This document shows positions 19,716 to 29,578 of a stretch of 64,000 bases of DNA, in pieces; the first letter of the stretch is position 1; every line of letters starts with the position of its first letter. Source of the stretch: an uncultured Nitrospirota bacterium. Its GTDB lineage: Bacteria > Nitrospirota > Nitrospiria > 2-01-FULL-66-17. Where the stretch lies: the NCBI GenBank assembly GCA_964570625.1, contig CAZMYW010000027.1:285510-349509 (forward strand), given 5' to 3'. The notes beneath the pieces are model-generated. The model worked only from the letters and a program-made list of their open reading frames with translations, was not told where the DNA came from and did no database searches. Made by a program: the position numbers and the translations under genes.

Positions 19716-20159
19716 GTGGGTTTCGACAAAATGCCGCAAGCGCCTTCCAGATCGCGCAGAACGTTCGGCGCGATCACTGTGCTCGTTATCACCGCCGCAG
19801 GGTGTGCGGGGACCCCGGAAGCGCGGCACGTCACGATTCCACCGGAACGAGTGGACCGCCTTATCCAATCGCTCTCAACACCGGTCGATCAGCCGCCCAT
19901 GCTAAAAGATCCGGTCGCACATCCGTATTATCCCAAGGAGGTCATCCCGGACAAACGACCCGGGATGGTGCTGCTCAAGATCGACGTCGACGCGAAGGGA
20001 CACGTCACCGCGGTGGAAGTGATCGAGTCCACTGCATTGATCTTCGAATCGCAAGCGCGACAAGCCGCCCGGCAGTGGTCCTTCGAACCCGCACGACGGG
20101 ACGGCGTCAACGTTCCTGCGACCATTGTCGTGCCGGTGGAGTTCAGCGAGAGAAAGTAG
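19716..20159 (+). CDS. TonB C-terminal-domain family lipoprotein
   Basis: Lipoprotein signal (ITAAGCAG). The C-terminal GHVTAVEVIESTALIFESQARQAARQWSFEPARRDGVNVPATIVVPVEF matches the TonB_C fold pattern. Confidence 0.65.
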   Translation: MGFDKMPQAPSRSRRTFGAITVLVITAAGCAGTPEARHVTIPPERVDRLIQSLSTPVDQPPMLKDPVAHPYYPKEVIPDKRPGMVLLKIDVDAKGHVTAVEVIESTALIFESQARQAARQWSFEPARRDGVNVPATIVVPVEFSERK

Positions 20160-20196: not shown

Positions 20197-21933
20197 TTAT
20201 CGCTCTCGGTACCGATTCGTCACGGGCATCCGGCGGTCTTTGCCCAGGGCGCGGGGGGTGAGTTTGATGCCGATGGGGGCTTGGCGGCGCTTGTATTCGC
20301 TGTGGTCGACCATGCGGGCCACGGTTTCGACCATCTTTTTTGGATAACCCATCGCTACGATTGATTCCAGCGCTTTATCCTCTTCGACGTACGCCTTGAG
20401 GATAGCGTCCAACACGTCGTACGGCGGCAGCGTGTCTTGATCACGCTGATTGTGCTTGAGCTCTGCGGTCGGTGCGCGATCAATGATCCGCTGCGGGATC
20501 ACCTTCCCGGCCGCGTTGCGGTGGCGCGCGAGATCGTAGACGCACGTCTTATACACGTCTTTGATGACGGCGAATCCGCCGGCCATGTCTCCGTAGAGCG
20601 TGGCGTATCCCACGCTCATCTCGCTTTTGTTGCCAGTCGTCAGCACGAGCCAGCCGAACTTGTTTGAGAGCGCCATGAGGAAGTTACCGCGAATCCTCGC
20701 CTGAACGTTTTCTTCCGTCGTGTCCGGACGGCGACCGGAAAATGCCTCGGCCAGTGCCTTCTCGTAGCCGGCCATCAGGCCGTGGATCGGCAGGGTGACC
20801 AGGCGAATCCCAAGGTTGTGGACGAGATGCTCGGTATCTTCGCGGCTCTGGGTGGAGGTGTACGGCGACGGCATGAACACGCCCACGACCCCCGAAGCAC
20901 CTAGCGCATCCGTGGCAATCGTGGCGGTGAGCGAGGAATCGATGCCTCCGCTGAGCCCGATCACCACAGTCTCGAACCCGTTCTTGGCGACGTAATCTTT
21001 GACTCCGGTCACCAGCGCGCGAAAAACCTCCTCCTCCGGCGCAAGCGCAGGAGCCACCGGGCGATTGACCCAGGTCCGTTTCGGCTTGGAGGATTTGATC
21101 GTCGGGACCTTCACCCGTTGCACGGCCCCGAACTGCTTCAGCATCGCCAACTTCTTTTTTCGACGTCGCGTATCGTGCAGACGCGCCTGAAACACCGCGT
21201 CAACGTCCAAATCGACGACCAGTAGCTCCTCGGCGAACTGCCGTCCCCGCGCCACAATCGTGCCCTGTTGATCTACGATCACACTGTGGCCGTCGAACAC
21301 GAGTTCGTCCTGCCCCCCCACGGCATTCACCGATGCGACCATCACCTGGTTATCCACCGCGCGCGTCGCGAACATCCGCTCGCGGAACGCGCCCTTGCCT
21401 TGGGAGTAGGGCGACGCGCCGATATTGACGATGACTTCAGCCTCACCGACCAGGGACTGTAGCTGCGTCGGCCCCTCTGGAAACCAAATGTCTTCGCAAA
21501 TGTTCACGCCGATGGTCACGCCATTGACATCGAACACCGAGCAGTCTCTCCCCGTTTGAAAGTACCGGTCTTCGTCGAACACGCCGTAGTTGGGGAGGTA
21601 CATCTTGCGGTGCATGCCGACCCGGCGGCCGTTGGCCAGGACAGCCGCGGCATTGAAGATATCACCGTCGCGGTCCACCACACCCACCACCGCGACGATT
21701 CCGCGCGTGGCCGACGTGATGGAATCCAGCGCCTTGAGGTTATCCTGAATAAAACGAGGCTTGAGGAGGAGGTCTTCTGGCGGATATCCGGGCAGCGACA
21801 TTTCGGGAAACGCCACGAGATCCGCGCCCGCTTTGCGCGCTTCCCCGATCAGCCGGCGAATCTTGGCGGCGTTGCCCGTCAGATCTCCGACCGTACTGTT
21901 TATTTGCGCGAGCGCAAGCCGCAGTCGACGCAT
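20197..21933 (-). CDS. nadE: glutamine-dependent NAD+ synthetase
   Basis: N-terminal CN-hydrolase domain (RLALAQINSTVGDL, FPEMSLPGYP) and a C-terminal NAD synthetase domain (VIGLSGGIDSS). Start at MRRLRLALAQ. Confidence 0.9.
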   Translation of the reverse strand: MRRLRLALAQINSTVGDLTGNAAKIRRLIGEARKAGADLVAFPEMSLPGYPPEDLLLKPRFIQDNLKALDSITSATRGIVAVVGVVDRDGDIFNAAAVLANGRRVGMHRKMYLPNYGVFDEDRYFQTGRDCSVFDVNGVTIGVNICEDIWFPEGPTQLQSLVGEAEVIVNIGASPYSQGKGAFRERMFATRAVDNQVMVASVNAVGGQDELVFDGHSVIVDQQGTIVARGRQFAEELLVVDLDVDAVFQARLHDTRRRKKKLAMLKQFGAVQRVKVPTIKSSKPKRTWVNRPVAPALAPEEEVFRALVTGVKDYVAKNGFETVVIGLSGGIDSSLTATIATDALGASGVVGVFMPSPYTSTQSREDTEHLVHNLGIRLVTLPIHGLMAGYEKALAEAFSGRRPDTTEENVQARIRGNFLMALSNKFGWLVLTTGNKSEMSVGYATLYGDMAGGFAVIKDVYKTCVYDLARHRNAAGKVIPQRIIDRAPTAELKHNQRDQDTLPPYDVLDAILKAYVEEDKALESIVAMGYPKKMVETVARMVDHSEYKRRQAPIGIKLTPRALGKDRRMPVTNRYRER

Positions 21934-22176
21934 GCCCACCTCCGCAAAAACTGTACTCACGGCGGGGATGAGGTGTCAAGAACACTGATCCGCGCTTCCA
22001 ACGTGACCGGGTTGTGGACCGAGAAGCGTATTCATGCACTATGAGACAGGAGCCCGTTCAGGAATGCGTCGGATGCCAGGCGGAGCGAGCGCCCGCACCG
22101 CAGCGTACTGTGTCGTACGTGAGGAGCGGACGCGGAGCGACAACGCCGCAGACGGCCATTCATGAACGGGCTCCCG

Positions 22177-22599
22177 CTACCGGACGATCAGCGTGCCCTT
22201 CATGCCGTTGTCATGATGAGAGACTGGGGCTTCCGCGTCGCAGCGAAACGAAAACTCCCCGGCCTTCTTCGGCGTAAACCTGATGATCACCGTGGCGCCC
22301 GGCAAGACTTCCAATTCCTCGACACCATGAACCAGCGCAATCGCGCCCTTGGTCTCCAAATCCACCTTGATGTCCGCCAGCACGTCGGACACGAATTCGT
22401 GCAACACCTTGCCAGAATTCACCAACTTCAGCTCAACCGGTTTTCCGCTTTGAATCTCGATCTGAGCGGGTTCGAACTTGTATTCGGTCATTCGAATCGT
22501 CACGGTTTGCGGCGCCGGCGGAATAGTCCGTTCATCCGCCACGGCGTGGACCGTCAACAATCCCATCGTCAGCATACCGGCCAATATCACTGCTCTCAT
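22177..22599 (-). CDS. cupredoxin-like (type-1 blue copper) periplasmic protein
   Basis: Signal peptide MRAVILAGMLTMGLLTVHA. Candidate Cu ligands are H (HEF), C (FRCD), H (SHHD) and M (NGM), in a beta-sandwich-sized 140-aa product. Start trimmed to the internal Met, which is ATGA-coupled to the upstream gene. Confidence 0.65.
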   Translation of the reverse strand: MRAVILAGMLTMGLLTVHAVADERTIPPAPQTVTIRMTEYKFEPAQIEIQSGKPVELKLVNSGKVLHEFVSDVLADIKVDLETKGAIALVHGVEELEVLPGATVIIRFTPKKAGEFSFRCDAEAPVSHHDNGMKGTLIVR

Positions 22600-23090
22600 T
22601 GTTTCCTCCCCTTCCACCACATGTCGTACAACGGCACCCCGATCAACACCACGGCAGTCCCGGTCATCACCACCCAGCTCGCGATTTGGAGCATGGCAAA
22701 CCCGGGGGCCACGAACCGAATCAGCCACGGAGACGCCAAGTCACTGAACGTCGCCGCAAACGCCAGCACGATCACGGTTCGTTTCAACGGAAGACCGATC
22801 GATGTCGCGACGAACAGGTGCGTCAACACCAACAGGACGATCCCTTCGATAAACGCATGGAAGTGTAGTTCCTCCAGCATCTGGCCCACCGGCCTCGGCA
22901 ACAGGTCTTCATCCCCCGATCCACGATAATGCTCGACGACCTGTTGATACTGCGGCCCCACCCTGGTGAAGGCGATCGCCACCAAACTCACGTAGCCCAC
23001 CGCGGCGAACACCAAGAAAGCCGTGTAAATCGCCTTGAGCTCCGGCGGGCTGAACCGGATCTGGAACCCCTGACGAGAAAAATCTTTCAT
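22596..23090 (-). CDS. 4-TM integral membrane protein, unknown family, His-rich second helix
   Basis: Four predicted helices and LHFHAFIEGIVLLVLTHLF. ATGA overlaps join it to both neighbours. Confidence 0.55.
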   Translation of the reverse strand: MKDFSRQGFQIRFSPPELKAIYTAFLVFAAVGYVSLVAIAFTRVGPQYQQVVEHYRGSGDEDLLPRPVGQMLEELHFHAFIEGIVLLVLTHLFVATSIGLPLKRTVIVLAFAATFSDLASPWLIRFVAPGFAMLQIASWVVMTGTAVVLIGVPLYDMWWKGRKQ

Positions 23091-24631
23091 GACCCGTCTC
23101 CGCCGGCCCCGTACACCGTCGCCGTCAGGGCCAACGCCGTCTTCACCGCCTGCGCGGTGGAGCGGGAGGACAACGTCGCGCCGCTAATCCCGTGGATGTC
23201 GCGGCCGAGGCGTAACGGCGCCGCCAGTGTCTTGCCGGTAAACTGGGCGAGAAATCGCTTGGAACGGATCTCCGAACCCTGCGACTCGCGATAGATCAAC
23301 ACCTGCACGCCCCGCACCACACCCTCGGGAGCGACCGCGACCATAAACGTGATCGGCTGCTCCTTCCCGATAACGTCCACCACCGTCGCATAACCCAACG
23401 CTCCTTCGGCGCCGGTACCGACCCAAAAGGTGACCTCCGACTCGCGAACTCGCCTCCCGATCAGGGATTCGATCCGCGCCCGGTGGCCTTCCGTGAGTGA
23501 CACGGTTTCCTGCGTAAATTGCTCGGCCTCGGGGATCAAAGCCTTGAGCGCTTCTTCACGGCTCATGTACACCACGGCCTGGCCCAACGGTGGACGCACC
23601 ATCATCGCCATCACCGCAGCGACCATTCCGACCAGTATCCGGCGCCTAGCGAGCATATGCGGGGGACAAGGCTCCACCACCAACTCGCTCCATCCGGACG
23701 TCTGGCTGGTGACCACCCGTCCCGTATCGTCCGCGCTCGCAATCACCCCGTCGAGTCCCTGTTGGCCCAACAGATCCACCCCAGCGCGCGGACCCAACAC
23801 AAAGGCCGCCGTGGACAACGCATCGGCATCGAGCGCGGTCCTCGCCACCACCGACGCACTCGCCGCGCGGTGGGCCGGACGCCCTGTTCTGGGATCCAGA
23901 ATGTGGCCGTATCGGATCCCACGGATGATCACGGCCTGTTGGTCGTCTCCCGATGTGGCCAATGCGGCATCGCTCAAGCACACCACGCCCAAGACGCGAT
24001 TCGGATCCCGCGGGTGCCTGATGCCCACACGCCACCCGTCCTCACCAGGCGGCTTCCCGATCGCGTACGCCACGCTGCCGAAATCCACGAGCGCCGACGA
24101 CACGCCCGCTGCGATCAACAACCGGACGACTCGGTCGATGGTATAGCCCTTGCCCATCGCGCCGAACTCGAGTTCCACACAGGAATCTCGGTAGGCCACC
24201 GTCCCGGCGTGCGGATCCACGGCAATCATGGAAAATCCCACTCCAGCCAACAGTCCTTCCAACTCGTCCCCGGCAAGCGGCCGCAACGGCACGCCGCCGT
24301 ATCGGTCGTCACGAATCCGCCACGAGCGCGTGAGCGGCGAGACCGTGGCATCCACGGTCCCGCCGCTGATGACCGAAAACCGACGCGCCGCTTCAATCAA
24401 CCCGAGCAGCTCGGCACCGACCACGACCGGTCCGCGCCAGGCCTCGCGATTGACCCGCGACATCTCGCTGGTCGGATCAAACACGCTCAGCAGGCGTTCG
24501 ATCCGCACGGCCTCGGCAAACGCAGCGCGGAGCAATTCGTTCCCCGGTTCAGGGTCAGTGCCAGGAAGCGTGATATCGAGCACGCTCCCCATACACGGCT
24601 GGCTCCCTCTGGTGATTGGCCGGGCCATCAA
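23087..24631 (-). CDS. FAD:protein FMN transferase (ApbE) fused via a TM segment to an FMN-binding (NqrC/RnfG/NosR-type) domain
   Basis: ApbE-like N-terminal region of about 330 aa, then the hydrophobic RRRILVGMVAAVMAMMV segment. The C-terminal domain carries the flavinylation motif GISGATLSSRS. Confidence 0.75.
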   Translation of the reverse strand: MMARPITRGSQPCMGSVLDITLPGTDPEPGNELLRAAFAEAVRIERLLSVFDPTSEMSRVNREAWRGPVVVGAELLGLIEAARRFSVISGGTVDATVSPLTRSWRIRDDRYGGVPLRPLAGDELEGLLAGVGFSMIAVDPHAGTVAYRDSCVELEFGAMGKGYTIDRVVRLLIAAGVSSALVDFGSVAYAIGKPPGEDGWRVGIRHPRDPNRVLGVVCLSDAALATSGDDQQAVIIRGIRYGHILDPRTGRPAHRAASASVVARTALDADALSTAAFVLGPRAGVDLLGQQGLDGVIASADDTGRVVTSQTSGWSELVVEPCPPHMLARRRILVGMVAAVMAMMVRPPLGQAVVYMSREEALKALIPEAEQFTQETVSLTEGHRARIESLIGRRVRESEVTFWVGTGAEGALGYATVVDVIGKEQPITFMVAVAPEGVVRGVQVLIYRESQGSEIRSKRFLAQFTGKTLAAPLRLGRDIHGISGATLSSRSTAQAVKTALALTATVYGAGGDGS

Positions 24632-24635
24632 TCGG

Positions 24636-25832
24636 TCAATGGAATTGATACCCTACGCCTAGATTGAACCGGGTGCCGTCGTTGTCGGCCCCGTCTTCCC
24701 AGCTCTCCAGATCGGCCTTCACCGCAACATCCGGAATCGGGTAATAGGCCAAACCTGCGGTCATCACCTGCCGTTCGTTGGCCGGATTGGCGGTGAAGCC
24801 GGTCGGCATCGACTTCTGCGTGTCGAAATCTTCATACCGGATGAACGCGACCACGGACTGGTTCGTATCGGGAGCCAGTAGTTTGAGGAAATCATAAGCG
24901 GCTTCCAGGTACCACCCCATCATCTCCTCGCCGACGTCCTCCCCTGTAGCCGTGCTAATCTCAGCCGCACTATCCACGCTGATCGACGCCACCACACCGC
25001 GCAAATCCAGGCCGGCAAGACGCAGCCTCGCGTCCGCCTCCAGAATCCCCACCCCTGCATCGCCCAGCGCCGAGTTCTTCGTGGTATTGGCGCCGCCCTG
25101 GTAGACCGAGAGCCCGAGGTCCACACCCGGCAAGCCGACGTACTCCAATCGGCCCACGATCGCCAGCTCGTCCGAGGGCTGCTCCGCCACGTGTCCCCGC
25201 CCGCCGCGAATCCCGTTCGACGCGGTAAAGCCTTCGGCATTCAACCCGGACACGAGGTACACGCGGTACTTGAGGCCGGCCGGAACCGAGCCGAAGAACC
25301 CAACGCCGCCCTCTTGCCACGTAGTCGGAATGATGGTGCGCTGCACGTACGGTCGCTCCACGCTGTAAAAGAGCGGGGGCTCATGGAATTCGTTCAGCGG
25401 TCCCACCGGCATCAGCATACTGCCGGTCCGCACGTTGAAAGCCGGCGTGATGAGGAAATCCAGGTACGCAAACTCGAGCTCGATCTCGGTGGCCGCGTGC
25501 TCGAAATCGACCTCGGTGTGGACGCTGATGCGGTCGTTAAACTGATAACTCACCCCCCACACCATCCGGTGCAAATCCATGATCGCCGGGGCGTCGTCAT
25601 CGGGAACGCCCGATCCCTCAGGGCTATTGAAATGCAGCTCGCCATACCCGTGGAAACTCACCTTCCCCGTTCCGGATCCCCCGTGCGAGTCGGCCCCGCC
25701 GCCCCCTAGTTGATCCAGGCGCGACTCGATGTGGTCGAGCCGCTCGGTCACCGACTCATCCGCCAGCACGCTCATTGCCGCCGGCCCGACAAGCCATAAA
25801 CAAACCCCCAGCGTGGCCATAGTTCTCTTCAT
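24636..25832 (-). CDS. outer-membrane porin (beta-barrel, phosphate-selective-porin-like)
   Basis: Signal peptide and an amphipathic beta-strand pattern with aromatic girdle residues. C-terminus is ..GVGYQFH. GGAGGA RBS. Confidence 0.65.
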   Translation of the reverse strand: MKRTMATLGVCLWLVGPAAMSVLADESVTERLDHIESRLDQLGGGGADSHGGSGTGKVSFHGYGELHFNSPEGSGVPDDDAPAIMDLHRMVWGVSYQFNDRISVHTEVDFEHAATEIELEFAYLDFLITPAFNVRTGSMLMPVGPLNEFHEPPLFYSVERPYVQRTIIPTTWQEGGVGFFGSVPAGLKYRVYLVSGLNAEGFTASNGIRGGRGHVAEQPSDELAIVGRLEYVGLPGVDLGLSVYQGGANTTKNSALGDAGVGILEADARLRLAGLDLRGVVASISVDSAAEISTATGEDVGEEMMGWYLEAAYDFLKLLAPDTNQSVVAFIRYEDFDTQKSMPTGFTANPANERQVMTAGLAYYPIPDVAVKADLESWEDGADNDGTRFNLGVGYQFH

Positions 25833-25920
25833 TGCTCCTCCTTCGTGGGTGAATGGTGATTCGACTGACTGGGCGCTGGGTGCTCCAAGACCGCTGGCCT
25901 CTGTGGATTCTACCGGTCGT

Positions 25921-26085
25921 CTAACGCGAGGAAACGTTGGGATCGCGCGGAGGCGGAACGGTTCCGGCGATGCGATTCTGGGGAATGAGGACGGTGCGCT
26001 TGCAGCGACGGCACTTCAGCTCCAGGACATCGCCTCTCCACCGGGCCATGAGGCCACCGCACAAGCAGCGGACTTCGGACGCCAC
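25921..26085 (-). CDS. small Com-like zinc-ribbon protein
   Basis: VRCLCGGLMARWRGDVLELKCRRCKRTVLI resembles phage Mu Com (..IRCPHCNKLL..ELKCPRCK..). Start placed at the GTG with a GGAAG RBS. The track ORF start at 26148 abuts the operator and leaves no RBS. Confidence 0.45.
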   Translation of the reverse strand: MASEVRCLCGGLMARWRGDVLELKCRRCKRTVLIPQNRIAGTVPPPRDPNVSSR

Positions 26086-26150
26086 TTTTTCTTCCGCTCG
26101 GCGGGGAGTCACGAGGCTCGATTTCGGTGTCTGTTCACGCTCACCCAATT

Positions 26151-26218
26151 GATAATGGAATTAGATTTCAATTTCATTAAATGGGCGTCATAGTAGTAGG
26201 ATCGGAACAGCTTGTCAA
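26151..26218 (-). promoter_or_regulatory. promoter/operator module 1: TTGACA, 17 nt, TACTAT, followed by a Fur-box-like AT-rich palindrome (GATAATGGAATTAGATTTCAATTTCATTA)
   Basis: Read on the minus strand: -35 TTGACA (26213-26218), -10 TACTAT (26190-26195), then the palindromic AT-rich site 26151-26180 immediately upstream of the Com-like/porin operon. About 80 bp is homologous to module 2. Confidence 0.5.
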
Positions 26219-26279
26219 GCGGGAACGTTCGGACGTGGGAGTTCAGGAACGCCGCGGACGGCGGCGTTGCCCGGTAGGA

Positions 26280-26753
26280 CTACTCTTTCTTGATCTGTTG
26301 ACTGAGGTAGTTTTCAACCCCGACCCGCTTGATCGCGTCGAGTTGGGTTTCGATCCACTCGATGTGCTCCTCTTCACCCTGGACCATCCGCTCCAATTTT
26401 CCGCGGGTGTTGTAGTCCCCCACTTTCACGCAATGGGTGATCGCGTCGGTCAGGACACCCACCGCCTCCTGTTCGAGCCGCAGATCCAAGTTCAACTGTT
26501 CCAGGACGGTTTCGCCGATCTGCACTTGGCCCAGTCTCTGGAGGTTGGGAATCCCGTCGAGGAAGAGAATATGCTCGATGAGTTCGTGGGCGTCTTTCAT
26601 CTCGTCGAAGCTGTGTTTCTTGATCTTTTCGTACAAGCGCTCGAATCCCCAGTGACGACACATTTCCGCGTGCACGAAATATTGATTGATCGCAGTGAGC
26701 TCGTTGGTCAACACGCGGTTCAGCGAATCAACGACGCCCTTTTTGGCTTTCAT
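26280..26753 (-). CDS. bfr: bacterioferritin
   Basis: MKAKKGVVDSLNRVLTNELTAINQYFVHAEM and the EExH ferroxidase residues. 157 aa from the internal Met. Confidence 0.9.
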   Translation of the reverse strand: MKAKKGVVDSLNRVLTNELTAINQYFVHAEMCRHWGFERLYEKIKKHSFDEMKDAHELIEHILFLDGIPNLQRLGQVQIGETVLEQLNLDLRLEQEAVGVLTDAITHCVKVGDYNTRGKLERMVQGEEEHIEWIETQLDAIKRVGVENYLSQQIKKE

Positions 26754-26856
26754 GGTACCTCCCGGACGATGTGGTGACGGGGCTCTAGAACGTGAACGAG
26801 TGGCACCGTATCTCACCGGACCGGGGGATGTCAACAAGGTGCGAGGAACGCAGGGG

Positions 26857-27078
26857 TTACGAGCGGCTGGAGGTGCCGGCTGGAGCCATTCGCTTGGTTT
26901 TGAACTGTTCGGTTCGGGCAAGCGCGGCGAGATCCGCAATCCGCGTCACGCAACGTCCACAACAGTCGTCCCGGTCGATGCCCAGTTCCTCGGCCAACGC
27001 TTTGGGGCTGACGATCCCTGCGCGACCCAAGCTGCGGACATGGGAATCGGTGATGCCTTTACATAAACAGATATACAT
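26857..27078 (-). CDS. bfd: bacterioferritin-associated ferredoxin (2Fe-2S)
   Basis: MYICLCKGITD ... CCGRC cysteine pattern. 73 aa. Confidence 0.8.
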   Translation of the reverse strand: MYICLCKGITDSHVRSLGRAGIVSPKALAEELGIDRDDCCGRCVTRIADLAALARTEQFKTKRMAPAGTSSRS

Positions 27079-27096
27079 ATGCGACCGCCCTCACCG

Positions 27097-27161
27097 TTCA
27101 ATATTGTTCGATATTGAATTGCTTTTTCAAAATTCTAGCTGATCGGACGGGCACGTGTCAA
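27097..27161 (-). promoter_or_regulatory. bfd-proximal promoter (TTGACA, 18 nt, TAGAAT) with a 22-bp palindrome TTCAATATTGTTCGATATTGAA in the short leader
   Basis: -35 at 27156-27161 and -10 at 27132-27137 on the minus strand. The near-perfect inverted repeat at 27097-27118 lies between the predicted TSS and the bfd ATG (27078). Confidence 0.45.
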
Positions 27162-27350
27162 GCAGCGAGTTTCGGATGGGGTATCGACCCCGCAGGGCCT
27201 CCCCGAGGAGAGCGAAAAAAAAGAAACGCCCGGAATGAATGCATTCCGGGCGTTGGGCAAGTAAGCCTCGAGCCTCTGCAGTGCTGTCGTTCGTCGCGGA
27301 GCCGTATCCGCGTTAGGCGATCGTCACGCTCTCAGTCGCCACATACTCGG

Positions 27351-27425
27351 ACAATGAAATTGGAATTAGATTTCATTTTCATTTACAATGCGCGCATCGT
27401 AGCCGAACGGGAAATGACTTGTCAA
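27351..27425 (-). promoter_or_regulatory. promoter/operator module 2: TTGACA, 18 nt, TACGAT, plus Fur-box-like palindrome AATGAAATTGGAATTAGATTTCATT
   Basis: Shares the 14-mer GGAATTAGATTTCA, the TTGACA element and the spacing with module 1. It sits between the fur stop and bfd. Confidence 0.45.
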
Positions 27426-27437
27426 GGGGAAACTGGA

Positions 27438-27944
27438 CTAGTGGCTGTGGGGTTGCGGCGGTTGCGGGGGGCGAGCCTGCTGCTGGCTTTTGTCCGCTCG
27501 GACGGTCTCGCAGGCCTTGCAGAACCCATACAACTCGAGCTTGTGGAACGTGATCCGAAAATCGTGCTGACGGGCCACGTTTTCCTGAAACTCCTCGATT
27601 TGAAAGTTCTCGAACTCGATGATCCGTCCGCAGTGGGTGCAGATCAGATGATCGTGGTGCGATTTCCAGGCCACGTTGTCGTAGATGGTTTTCCCCTTGC
27701 CGAAGTGCCGCTCTTGGGCGAGTTCCCACTGGCACAGCAGCTTGAGGGTCCGATACACGGTAATAATCCCGATCGAGGGATCTTTCTTGGCGACCTGGTT
27801 GTAGAGATCTTCGACCGTAATGTGGTCCTGGTTCAGAAAGAGCTGCGCGATCAACTCACGCTGATGCGTCAACTTCAGGCCGTGTTCGCGCAGTCGCGCG
27901 TGGAGTAGGTCTCGAGATCGAGATTTGGGGGCGGCTTTCACCAT
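27438..27944 (-). CDS. fur: ferric uptake regulator family transcriptional repressor
   Basis: LKLTHQRELIAQLF DNA-binding helix, HHDHLICTHCG..FCKAC metal sites and a Q/P-rich C-tail. Start trimmed to MVKAAPKS. Confidence 0.85.
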   Translation of the reverse strand: MVKAAPKSRSRDLLHARLREHGLKLTHQRELIAQLFLNQDHITVEDLYNQVAKKDPSIGIITVYRTLKLLCQWELAQERHFGKGKTIYDNVAWKSHHDHLICTHCGRIIEFENFQIEEFQENVARQHDFRITFHKLELYGFCKACETVRADKSQQQARPPQPPQPHSH

Positions 27945-28093
27945 CACATCACGTCGTACGACTTGTTGGAACGATACGCTGGTCTGAAAGAGCCTGTCAA
28001 GGTATCCCCGTCTGGAACGACTGCGCGGACCCGGACCCGCACCTTGACTTTCATCCGGGTTTCCATACAATGGCCCCTACTTGAGGAGACTGT

Positions 28094-28279
28094 ATGGCAT
28101 CCGGACGGGAACGAGCGAAAGAATTGAGACGGCGTCAGAAGCGGCGACGCGAGCGCCTTCGGGAAAAAATCAAATCCCTGAAAGCCAAAGCCCAGGTCCA
28201 CGCGGCTAAGAAACCCGTCAAAGCCAAACCGAAACGCGAAAAACCAGGCCCCGCCGCCGCTCCAGCCGAGTCCGCTTAA
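28094..28279 (+). CDS. small highly basic Lys/Arg-rich protein (hypothetical)
   Basis: 61-aa ORF with a GAGGAG RBS 8 nt upstream. It lies in an otherwise empty gap between fur and the ANTAR regulator. Confidence 0.35.
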   Translation: MASGRERAKELRRRQKRRRERLREKIKSLKAKAQVHAAKKPVKAKPKREKPGPAAAPAESA

Positions 28280-28327
28280 CCGACCGAGCACCCACCCCTT
28301 TCCCCCACGGGTCCGGCAAGACCTCGC

Positions 28328-29578
28328 TTACCGCTGACTGCGCGTCGTGCCGATCACGGCTTCCGCGACTTGCCGCATCGGCCGGCGGTTGTTCATACTC
28401 TGACGCTGCAGCACGCGAAAGGCCTCTTCCTCGGTCAGCCGGCGCTCCCGCATCAAGATGCCTTTGGCTTTCTCCACCAGTTTCCGCAGCTCCAACGCGT
28501 CGTGCATTTGCGCGGTCTCCTGCATCAAACGCGTGTTCTCGATCGCCACCGCCGCCTGATTGGCGATCGCCTGCAGCAACTCGATTTCGTCCGTCAAAAA
28601 CACGTGCGGCTCGGCAGTGTAGCTGTTGATCACGCCGACGGCTCGGTCTTTGTACAACATCGGCACTGACAGGAGAGAACGGAGTCCTTCTCGACGCGCC
28701 AGATCGGGATACACGTACCCCGGATCGGCCGTCACGTCGCAGACAGCGATCGGGCGTTTCTCCAGCACCGCCCGCCCGCTCACCGCCTGACCGATCTTGA
28801 GCGGCGGCTTGCTCCGGTACGCGTCGGACAGGCTCTGCGTGGCGGCGATACGCAGTTCCCCTCGCTCGTCGTCCGCGAGCATGATCGAGCAGATCGCGGA
28901 CCCCATGGTTCGAGCCGTGATCGTCACGATGAGGTGCAGCATCTCTTCGAGATACCGCGTCGATGTGATCGTGGTGCTTACCTGCAGGAGCGTCTCGAGC
29001 TGGAGCGTCTTACGGCGCATGCCTTCGTACAAACTGGCGTTTTCGATCGCCCCGCCCACCTGATGGCCGATCGCGGCAAGGAGCGCGATCTGCGAGACGG
29101 AATGGCGATGGGGATCCCGGTGCTGCACGTTGATCACGCCGATGACCTGGTCTTTGGCGATCACCGGCACGGACAAGAATGCCTGATAGCGGTCCTCGGG
29201 CAAGTTATGAAAACACTTGAACCGCGGGTCCTCGCTGGCGTGCTGGTCGATCGCCACGGGCGTACGCTCACGCGCGACCCATCCGGTGATCCCCTCCCCT
29301 ATCTCTAATTTGATTCGACCGATCAGTCGCGGATGCGGCTGTTTGGAGGCCCTCAGCACCAGTTCCTGATGGTTGTCATCGACGAGGTACAGAAACACGG
29401 CATCGCCAGCGGTCACCTCGACGACCAAGTCGATGATCTGTCGGAGCACGGCTTCCTGATCGAGCGTCCCACTGATGGTTTCGCTGATCCGTCGCAAGAC
29501 GTCCAATTCGCGGTTGGTCTGGCGCACCGCGTTGACGGCGGGGCGGGGTCGGCGGGACCGCGTGGTTATCGCAGCCAT
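28328..29578 (-). CDS. GAF-GAF-ANTAR RNA-binding antitermination regulator
   Basis: Two GAF domains and a C-terminal ANTAR domain (LRKLVEKAKGILMRERRLTEEEAFRVLQRQSMNNRRPMRQVAEAVI). Confidence 0.85.
   Translation of the reverse strand: MAAITTRSRRPRPAVNAVRQTNRELDVLRRISETISGTLDQEAVLRQIIDLVVEVTAGDAVFLYLVDDNHQELVLRASKQPHPRLIGRIKLEIGEGITGWVARERTPVAIDQHASEDPRFKCFHNLPEDRYQAFLSVPVIAKDQVIGVINVQHRDPHRHSVSQIALLAAIGHQVGGAIENASLYEGMRRKTLQLETLLQVSTTITSTRYLEEMLHLIVTITARTMGSAICSIMLADDERGELRIAATQSLSDAYRSKPPLKIGQAVSGRAVLEKRPIAVCDVTADPGYVYPDLARREGLRSLLSVPMLYKDRAVGVINSYTAEPHVFLTDEIELLQAIANQAAVAIENTRLMQETAQMHDALELRKLVEKAKGILMRERRLTEEEAFRVLQRQSMNNRRPMRQVAEAVIGTTRSQR

Follow-up and report, generated by a model that had tools for sequence, protein, structure and literature searches.

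The locus described here lies within a 64,000-nucleotide (nt) stretch of contig CAZMYW010000027.1 from an uncultured Nitrospirota bacterium (assembly GCA_964570625.1), and this whole stretch is referred to below as the window. Five genes, taken from the list of open reading frames (ORFs), run in the same direction on the minus strand between positions 22177 and 26148. They encode, in order, a small Cys4 zinc-ribbon protein (25921-26148, minus), a porin of 398 amino acids (aa; 24636-25832, minus), a 514-aa fusion of the flavin transferase ApbE to an FMN_bind domain (23087-24631, minus), a 164-aa membrane protein with four transmembrane helices (4-TM; 22596-23090, minus), and a 140-aa cupredoxin (22177-22599, minus). 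As a preliminary description of the locus had stated, the genes are tightly coupled: direct reading of the sequence shows that the fusion and 4-TM genes overlap by ATGA at 23087-23090 and the 4-TM and cupredoxin genes by ATGA at 22596-22599, and only 4 nt lie between the porin stop codon and the TTG at which the fusion gene starts (7 nt if the ATG that forms the next codon is taken instead). The sigma-70-type promoter claimed for the operon (TTGACA-17 nt-TACTAT; 26190-26218, minus; 10 of 12 matches) was recovered by a promoter scan, which gave 8 promoter-like sites in 21800-28400 versus 1.7 expected, and its layout is kept in two sister loci (L007 and L008). The analysis presented below indicates that the operon is probably an undescribed flavin-based redox system that serves iron acquisition.

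The 4-TM protein is an inner-membrane four-helix protein of Pfam family PF27139 (Aq_1264_TM), which has 845 representatives at 50% clustering; the assignment was taken from the precomputed Pfam annotation of an identical protein (P0001) and of all 115 homologues. When one genome per species was scanned, 41 loci encoding an Aq_1264_TM relative were obtained, and neighbours were counted within 6 kb at the 19 that had enough flanking DNA. ApbE, FMN_bind, and a porin-like gene were each present at all 19 loci, followed by fur at 13, the zinc-ribbon gene at 12, the cupredoxin gene and a gene that fuses a di-cytochrome c to the iron permease FTR1 at 5 each, and bfr at 3. These four genes also occur together in a distant Gemmatimonadota subfamily, where they are arranged as porin-like, FMN_bind, Aq_1264_TM, and ApbE. 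The conserved unit is porin, ApbE, FMN_bind, and Aq_1264_TM; of the co-occurrence proposed earlier for ApbE, FMN_bind, the 4-TM gene, and the cupredoxin gene, all but the cupredoxin part held, and the porin gene joins the conserved set.

Within the fusion, the ApbE domain (aa 14-294) matched Pfam PF02424 over model positions 1-263 of 266 (E = 1.6e-67; 228 bits versus a cut-off of 25.6), and its motifs for flavin adenine dinucleotide (FAD) and Mg are intact (GAMGKGY, HILDPRTG, and DADALSTA). The FMN_bind domain (PF04205) occupies aa 422-500 (E = 2.5e-9), and RnfG-like NCBIfam models match the fusion at about E = 2e-8, far under their cut-offs. The flavinylation motif GISGATLSS was read at aa 481-489 (23165-23191, minus) and is kept as (S/A)GATLSV among homologues; from what is established for NqrC and RnfG, the Thr of SGAT is presumably the attachment site for flavin mononucleotide (FMN). 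The earlier claim of an ApbE fused to its own FMN acceptor is borne out by these assignments, and the ApbE domain is predicted to transfer flavin onto the FMN_bind domain of the same polypeptide. More than 20 Nitrospirota loci keep the fusion architecture.

The fused ApbE has no N-terminal signal peptide, either in the window or in more than 20 orthologues; its domain begins within 13 residues of the N terminus, and an in-frame stop codon lies directly upstream. The segment between the two domains resembles a twin-arginine (Tat) signal (ARRRILVGMVAAVMAMMVRPPLGQA; ARRRILVG...PLGQA; aa 328-352, 23576-23650, minus). An interdomain R-R-x-[FIV]-[LVM] motif with a hydrophobic stretch was found in 22/22 orthologous fusions, mostly as S/T-R-R-x-F-L, with a small-residue (AxA-like) end in most of them, such that the fusion has the twin-arginine motif, the hydrophobic stretch, and the small-residue end of a Tat signal without the usual N-terminal placement. 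Stand-alone FMN_bind homologues begin with MLSRRRFLT, a Tat signal, and the stand-alone ApbEs of the family carry Sec-type or Tat signal peptides of their own. Production of a separate FMN_bind protein from an internal translation start was ruled out, as no start codon is conserved before the twin-arginine motif. As the simplest reading of this arrangement, we infer flavinylation in cis in the cytoplasm followed by Tat export; the ApbE domain would be cytoplasmic because it lacks a signal peptide and precedes the internal twin-arginine signal. In one Gemmatimonadota locus (L048, 7518-8507), the stand-alone ApbE bears the twin-arginine signal GRRRFLGLL; therefore, at least three export arrangements exist for ApbE in this family, namely, Sec or lipoprotein, Tat, and none (fused).

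Alignments of Aq_1264_TM (A1 and A2) showed seven invariant residues. Y55 and G57 belong to the HYRG motif of a short helix on the periplasmic side, E73, H76, and H78 lie where helix 2 reaches the periplasm, H91 follows 13 residues deeper in helix 2, and P121 completes the set. With three invariant His residues in total, "His-rich" as applied to this protein at first was an overstatement. The AlphaFold2 model has a predicted local distance difference test (pLDDT) score of 88.8. Natural fusions occur elsewhere, including Aq_1264_TM::ApbE, in which a fifth transmembrane helix or a lipobox makes the ApbE domain periplasmic, and, in other lineages, Aq_1264_TM::FMN_bind. Some loci have paired or tandem copies of Aq_1264_TM, which suggests that the protein acts as a dimer. 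Two Gemmatimonadota operons (L049, 5880-7513; L051, 5755-7540) each encode two Aq_1264_TM paralogues, one without all three conserved His residues (and fused to FMN_bind in L049) and the other with HxH-x12-H retained, suggesting a heterodimer with one catalytic subunit. The HxH-x12-H pattern on one helix could accommodate a haem or metal site. An inter-subunit bis-His haem was considered; it is favoured by the 13-residue His spacing and the hints of a dimer, is weakened by the pairing of His-less with His-bearing paralogues, and was retained as a possibility only. The "heme-free" label given to the operon at first is not established, since HxH-x12-H could ligate a cofactor and sister systems contain di-cytochrome c domains.

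We also considered the possibility that Aq_1264_TM exports or traffics FAD to supply ApbE, with the redox electrons coming from components encoded elsewhere. The family is always found beside apbE, many of its invariant aromatic and His residues could stack a flavin, and small four-helix dimers such as those of the SMR family can be exporters. Moreover, the fifth-helix Aq_1264_TM::ApbE fusions, which put ApbE in the periplasm, would make sense as an exporter joined to its transferase, and there is a precedent in EetB/FmnA, a FAD exporter that is co-localised with apbE and in which the small membrane protein EetB of Listeria is the substrate-binding subunit (PMC9973259). However, in the clade of the window the ApbE domain lacks a signal peptide and comes before the Tat signal, which should make FAD export needless, and yet Aq_1264_TM is kept and translationally coupled. 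In addition, fusions of Aq_1264_TM to the redox domain FMN_bind exist, and the locus encodes no ATPase or ECF-type partner. We therefore regard a flavin exporter as unlikely and treat Aq_1264_TM below as a putative electron-transfer protein.

The porin had no Pfam match and no sequence match in the PDB, although Pfam Porin_O_P or Porin_4 matches some of its homologues. It has a signal peptide followed by an N-terminal helix, its C terminus is YQFH, and the AlphaFold2 model is a 16-strand barrel (pLDDT 80.7) for which Foldseek returned OmpC, OmpF, and OmpM1 from the PDB (E = 1e-11 to 1e-13; probability 1.0). The features are those of a 16-strand general porin, and the outer-membrane assignment made earlier stands on the model and the Foldseek matches. 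An inner loop (aa 140-175) that is rich in His, Glu, and Asp is invariant, as are many His, Glu, and Asp residues of the protein, which suggests a selective rather than a general channel.

The Cys4 protein (core, RCLCGGLMARWRGDVLELKCRRCKR) probably starts at a GTG at 26085, after GGAAG. Its core, RCxCGxLxA(R/K)-x6-LELKC(R/K)RCKR, was found at 13 loci in at least four phyla (Nitrospirota, Binatia, delta-proteobacterial metagenome-assembled genomes [MAGs], and Thermodesulfobacteriota). The gene always adjoins the porin gene, lying directly upstream of it at 11/13 loci and shortly after it in L016 and L025. The ORF is a real gene. The protein had been called Com-like, and of that claim the conserved Cys4 protein stood while the likeness to Com stayed below threshold: the window protein did not match PF10122 (Zn_ribbon_Com), one homologue reached E = 0.015 (15.1 bits versus a cut-off of 22.9), and comparisons with the phrog gpCom and translational-regulator families gave sub-threshold values of E = 0.003-0.05. 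The Cys4 protein probably acts as a small regulator that binds nucleic acid and is linked to the porin gene. The zinc-ribbon gene and the porin start are 88 nt apart (25833-25920, minus), and this spacer shares with L007 (7150-7242) and L008 (7170-7268) a block, CACAGAGGCCAGCGGTC.TGAGCACCCAG.GC, for which a small hairpin is predicted. The block could be the target of the Com-like Cys4 protein. An RNA hairpin as such was not accepted for this spacer, the three sequences being close and showing no covariation.

Upstream of the operon lie, as described before, bfr (bacterioferritin; 26280-26753, minus; Pfam Ferritin, 9e-34), bfd (a [2Fe-2S] BFD-like protein; 26857-27078, minus; Pfam Fer2_BFD, 1.4e-6), and a gene for a Fur-family regulator (27438-27944, minus; Pfam FUR, 3.2e-35). 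The best NCBIfam matches of the regulator are Fur models, with scores under their cut-offs, and the adjacent Fur-family protein is likely the repressor of the operon. The bfd-bfr pair adjoins the operon in the window and in L001, L003, L007, and L008; these neighbours and the FTR1 genes of sister loci are independent links to iron.

An AT-rich operator at 26150-26185 (core 26156-26178, AATGAAATTGAAATCTAATTCCA; minus), 11 nt past the -10 hexamer, is Fur-box-like and non-canonical. Two copies of the AT-rich 23-mer AATGAAAnTGAAATCTAATTCCA are present in the window, one at 26156-26178 and one at 27361-27383 (minus), the latter just after fur and behind a TTGACA-18-TACGAT promoter (27396-27425); the chance expectation is 0 (100 shuffles), and the two copies are the second and third most AT-rich 30-mers in the 64 kb. 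At the operon promoters of L007 and L008, where the 4-TM proteins are 70% identical, the operator is conserved while the flanking DNA diverges. Canonical Fur boxes were found at nine operon-head sites of sister loci, the orthologous position being so occupied in L004, L017, L024, L029, L030, L032, L035, and L036, with TGATAATCATTATCA in L030 and variants of it in others: TGATAATCATTCTCA in L024, L029, and L032, TGAGAATGATTCTCA in L004, and TGATAATCATTTTCA in L036, which has a second box before FTR1. Related palindromes are present in delta-type and Gemmatimonadota loci. A conserved operator at the promoter, orthologous Fur boxes, and an adjacent fur gene are the comparative evidence expected of a Fur regulon, and on this sequence evidence Fur control of the family is well supported. 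For the operon in the window, Fur control is proposed by positional analogy only. The link to iron regulation proposed at the outset is upheld by fur adjacency at 13/19 loci, by the sister-locus Fur boxes, and by the adjacency of bfd-bfr or cytochrome c-FTR1 in others. The Fur-box-like element itself was upheld in part: the second copy, the conservation in L007 and L008, and the sister-locus boxes speak for it, and its poor fit to Fur consensus sequences, detailed below, speaks against it.

The cupredoxin has a signal peptide and matched Pfam Cupredoxin_1 (2.3e-15) and Copper-bind (9.8e-5). The ligand set H67, C120, H128, and M133 is invariant in 14 homologues, and an extra His (H129) is present only in the window protein and its closest relatives. 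The best PDB sequence matches were to the CuA domain of ba3 oxidase, whose second Cys is absent here. At the level of sequence, a type-1 copper protein is a fair call, in agreement with the preliminary description. The cupredoxin belongs to one Nitrospirota subclade, and in two Manganitrophaceae-type loci its gene occupies another position. Since it occurs in only 5/19 well-flanked loci, the cupredoxin is accessory and not part of the core; a system "built from flavin and copper", as first worded, is thus supported in its flavin half and overstated in its copper half.

Another possibility is that the module serves copper or another metal, for example, by periplasmic reduction or handling of Cu(II) with the cupredoxin as a CopI-like cuproprotein, in which case the Fur-family neighbour would be a paralogue responding to another signal (Mur, Zur, or PerR-like). 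Points in its favour are a partial match of the cupredoxin to NCBIfam CopI (E = 4.5e-11), the HMA, NikR_C, and ZnuA/ABC-3 metal genes that are neighbours in L004, the non-canonical operator of the window, and the Fur protein scores under the NCBIfam Fur cut-offs. However, the CopI match amounts to 42.8 bits versus a cut-off of 280 and covers residues 29-70 only, none of the operon proteins had a Pfam match to CopC or CopD, and the cupredoxin is absent from most members, while bfd-bfr, FTR1, and the canonical Fur boxes of sister loci point to iron. We consider a dedicated copper or other-metal module very unlikely. On the same matches, the 4-TM protein and the cupredoxin were judged not to be CopC, CopD, or CopI; a match to CopC/CopD was one way in which the original interpretation might have failed.

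FTR1 is present in seven sister loci (L001, L028, L036, L042, L043, L045, and L047). In L001 (4039-6333), and also in L043, L045, and L047, it forms part of a 764-aa protein in which two cytochrome c domains are fused to the FTR1 iron permease. In Binatia and delta-type MAGs the module begins with the cytochrome c-FTR1 gene, and a perfect palindrome, TGAAAGTGACTTTCA, precedes it in the delta-proteobacterial and Thermodesulfobacteriota loci (L043, L045, and L047). These fusions bring to mind ferroxidase-permease uptake of the FtrABCD, EfeUOB, or Fet3-Ftr1 type. The cupredoxin or cytochrome c would then oxidise Fe(II), with the FMN protein and Aq_1264_TM as an electron sink to quinone; alternatively, Aq_1264_TM would itself be the metal permease, with E73/H76/H78 as the entry and H91 in mid-membrane. 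Consistent with such a system, the fusion is the first module gene in 5/19 loci, the type-1 ligand set of the cupredoxin is like the type-1 sites of FtrB and Fet3, the periplasm-facing ExxHxH cluster with its deeper His resembles a metal path, and no other permease is encoded in the window. However, potentials are low for covalent FMN centres of the RnfG/NqrC type and high for type-1 copper centres and c-type haems, and electron flow from type-1 copper or cytochrome c to FMN would be uphill. Furthermore, FTR1 and the cupredoxin are both missing from most Nitrospirota members, a profile comparison of Aq_1264_TM with FTR1 revealed no relation, and a His-less paralogue pairs with a His-bearing one in Gemmatimonadota. 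An oxidative uptake system of this kind appears quite unlikely to us. The proposal that the module replaces a cytochrome-based conduit so as to spare iron is an appealing way to read the alternation of cupredoxin and cytochrome c. It drew weak circumstantial support, however, as the two are not positional equivalents and may not exclude one another.

Weighing these observations, we tentatively propose, with slightly less than even confidence, that the operon encodes a Fur-family-controlled, envelope-spanning redox module with a four-part core whose FMN domain reduces a metal, most likely Fe(III). When iron is low, the adjacent Fur-family repressor would leave the operator just past the -10 hexamer, as its position and comparative footprinting suggest. 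The cytoplasmic ApbE domain would then place FMN, drawn from cytoplasmic FAD, on the SGAT Thr of its own C-terminal domain, and the folded flavoprotein would be exported or anchored by Tat, in keeping with the conserved topology. Aq_1264_TM, whose gene is translationally coupled to the fusion gene, may dock the FMN domain as a dimer and pass it electrons, taken either from membrane quinols or from the cytoplasmic face, via the periplasm-facing cluster Y55/E73/H76/H78 and the deeper H91. The metal substrate, most likely Fe(III), would be admitted by the porin and reduced by the FMN domain directly or via an accessory one-electron carrier, which would be the type-1 cupredoxin here and the di-cytochrome c domain fused to FTR1 in other phyla. 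Given the low potentials of the FMN centres and the high potentials of type-1 copper and c-type haems, flow from FMN to either carrier would be downhill. A role in periplasmic flavin-based electron transfer or metal reduction, as first put forward, is in keeping with the known ApbE-flavinylated systems that have been linked to iron assimilation (PMC8238504).

Several observations weigh against this proposal. A canonical 7-1-7 Fur matrix, derived from nine sister-locus boxes and run over the window, left the operator unranked and gave best scores within the shuffle range; the operator matches the E. coli Fur 19-mer at 12/19 positions and conforms to neither the 7-1-7 (TGATAATnATTATCA) nor the 19-bp (GATAATGATAATCATTATC) Fur consensus. 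The matrix scan that the preliminary description had called for was thus negative, and "canonical Fur box" was dropped for this operator on the matrix and the 12/19 match; it was kept as a Fur-box-like element with positional orthology. Because the operator fails both the matrix and the 19-mer, we infer the identity of the protein that binds it, and the specificity of the local Fur-family protein may have shifted. The other adverse points concern the redox chain. The fold search found no solved structure resembling Aq_1264_TM beyond generic four-helix bundles, and no cofactor is assignable to the protein because it has no structural relative. The literature that we consulted offered no precedent for export by a Tat signal that lies internally, after a soluble domain of 320 residues. 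The cupredoxin is missing from most family members, and type-1 copper centres are generally too oxidising to reduce Fe(III) well. Finally, there is no FTR1 in the 64-kb window, the sole match being to a cytochrome c domain at about 56.4-56.8 kb, nor was P19, EfeB, or polyferredoxin found there.

A broader claim, which we regard as possible and rather doubtful as a whole, is that the four-part core constitutes an unrecognised, Fur-controlled, cross-phylum, flavin-based periplasmic metal reductase; the Nitrospirota form would be flavinylated in cis before Tat export, with no need for FAD export, and Aq_1264_TM would be a new membrane electron-entry protein. The 845-representative membrane family is always beside ApbE and FMN_bind, and Fur appears to control it in at least six phylum-level groups. 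The compact module is thereby a candidate for the assimilatory reduction of iron in groups of environmental importance, among them Nitrospirota (with Manganitrophaceae), Methylomirabilota, Binatia, and Gemmatimonadota. How electrons are wired outside the cytoplasm and how exported proteins are loaded with flavin are only partly understood in bacteria, and the fusion of ApbE to its target across an internal Tat signal bears on whether covalent flavinylation can precede export. The accessory slot, which varies by lineage among a cupredoxin, a cytochrome c-FTR1 fusion, and nothing, is relevant to how far the electron carrier that is used depends on the metals available. Should the operon prove not to be iron regulated, it would still be a new flavinylation-associated system.

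Other features were noted around the operon. At 27101-27161 (minus), the promoter of bfd (TTGACA-18-TAGAAT; 11/12 matches) is followed by a third, different AT-rich element, TTGAAAAAGCAATTCAATATCGAACAATAT, which is the top match in the window to the E. coli Fur 19-mer (13/19). Between fur and bfd lies a candidate Fur-regulated small RNA (27212-27425, minus), in which a promoter (27425-27396) and the operator copy at 27361-27383 are followed by about 130 nt without a convincing ORF and by a strong intrinsic terminator (13-bp stem at 27254-27225 and a T-run); its minimum free energy is -57.4 kcal/mol (z = -2.4), it has no Rfam match, and it was not found in L007 or L008. An Rfam scan of 21-29 kb gave no relevant match. 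Just upstream of fur is encoded a 416-aa GAF-GAF-ANTAR protein (28328-29578, minus; Pfam labels from the identical locus L006), which is likely an RNA-binding antiterminator. About 2 kb downstream of the operon, between glnA and nadE, a 147-aa ORF (19716-20159, plus) has a C-terminal half that resembles, by eye, a TonB C-terminal domain.

Extracytosolic electron transfer by ApbE-flavinylated proteins is known, and such systems have been linked to iron assimilation and to P19/FTR1 (Meheust et al. 2021, PMC8238504). Searches of the literature for Aq_1264, for Manganitrophus with ApbE, and for ApbE with cupredoxin or twin-arginine found no description of the present system, in accord with the earlier remark that the gene combination was not recognised; the parts not found described are the PF27139 four-gene core, its dedicated porin, the conserved Cys4 protein, and the Nitrospirota ApbE-Tat-FMN_bind fusion. 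The 2021 survey of flavinylation retained only signal-peptide-bearing proteins (PMC8238504) and therefore would have missed ApbE::FMN_bind fusions of this type. The operon shares with the ApbE-flavinylated systems (PMC8238504; Huang et al. 2024, PMC10979944) an ApbE, an SGAT-bearing FMN_bind acceptor, the linkage to iron assimilation, and a nearby small membrane protein whose most conserved residues are His, as well as the logic of membrane electron entry, a periplasmic covalent FMN, and an external acceptor. It differs in that the membrane protein is PF27139 and not DUF4405, in having its own outer-membrane porin and small Cys4 protein, and in the fusion of ApbE, in this clade, upstream of an internal Tat signal. 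NapH-like, MsrQ-like, PepSY-like, DsbD, NQR/RNF-like, and DUF4405 Pfam domains were all absent from the five genes and from the sister loci.

The flavin-based extracellular electron transfer (EET) locus of Listeria (PplA, FmnB, EetA/EetB, FmnA, and Ndh2) likewise has a flavinylated FMN_bind protein and an ApbE-type transferase, together with small membrane proteins whose role was at first not known. That locus has ferric-reductase activity. In contrast to the Listeria locus, the operon has no Ndh2 or quinone-biosynthesis gene and has a Gram-negative layout with a porin; moreover, EetB is a FAD exporter subunit (PMC9973259), whereas the transferase here is apparently cytoplasmic. With FtrABCD, EfeUOB, and yeast Fre1-Fet3-Ftr1, the module has in common apparently iron-regulated envelope redox proteins, a periplasmic cupredoxin (FtrB; the cupredoxin domain of EfeO), and, in sister loci, an FTR1 permease with attached redox domains, but its redox core would be a covalent FMN rather than a multicopper oxidase or peroxidase.

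The Cys4 protein resembles Com of phage Mu in being small and basic, in its CxC/CxxC ... (I/L)E(I/L)(K/R)C(P/R)RCKR spacing, and in being encoded directly upstream of a possible target gene; it differs in that the similarity is sub-threshold only and that the operon is chromosomal, not phage. Both cytosolic ApbE (Klebsiella) and substrate-fused ApbE (trypanosomatid fumarate reductases) exist (PMC12052999), and no literature report was found in which either is coupled to export. As in those enzymes, ApbE is here N-terminal to its own target and would act in the cytoplasm; unlike their targets, which stay intracellular, the target here follows a Tat signal and should be periplasmic.

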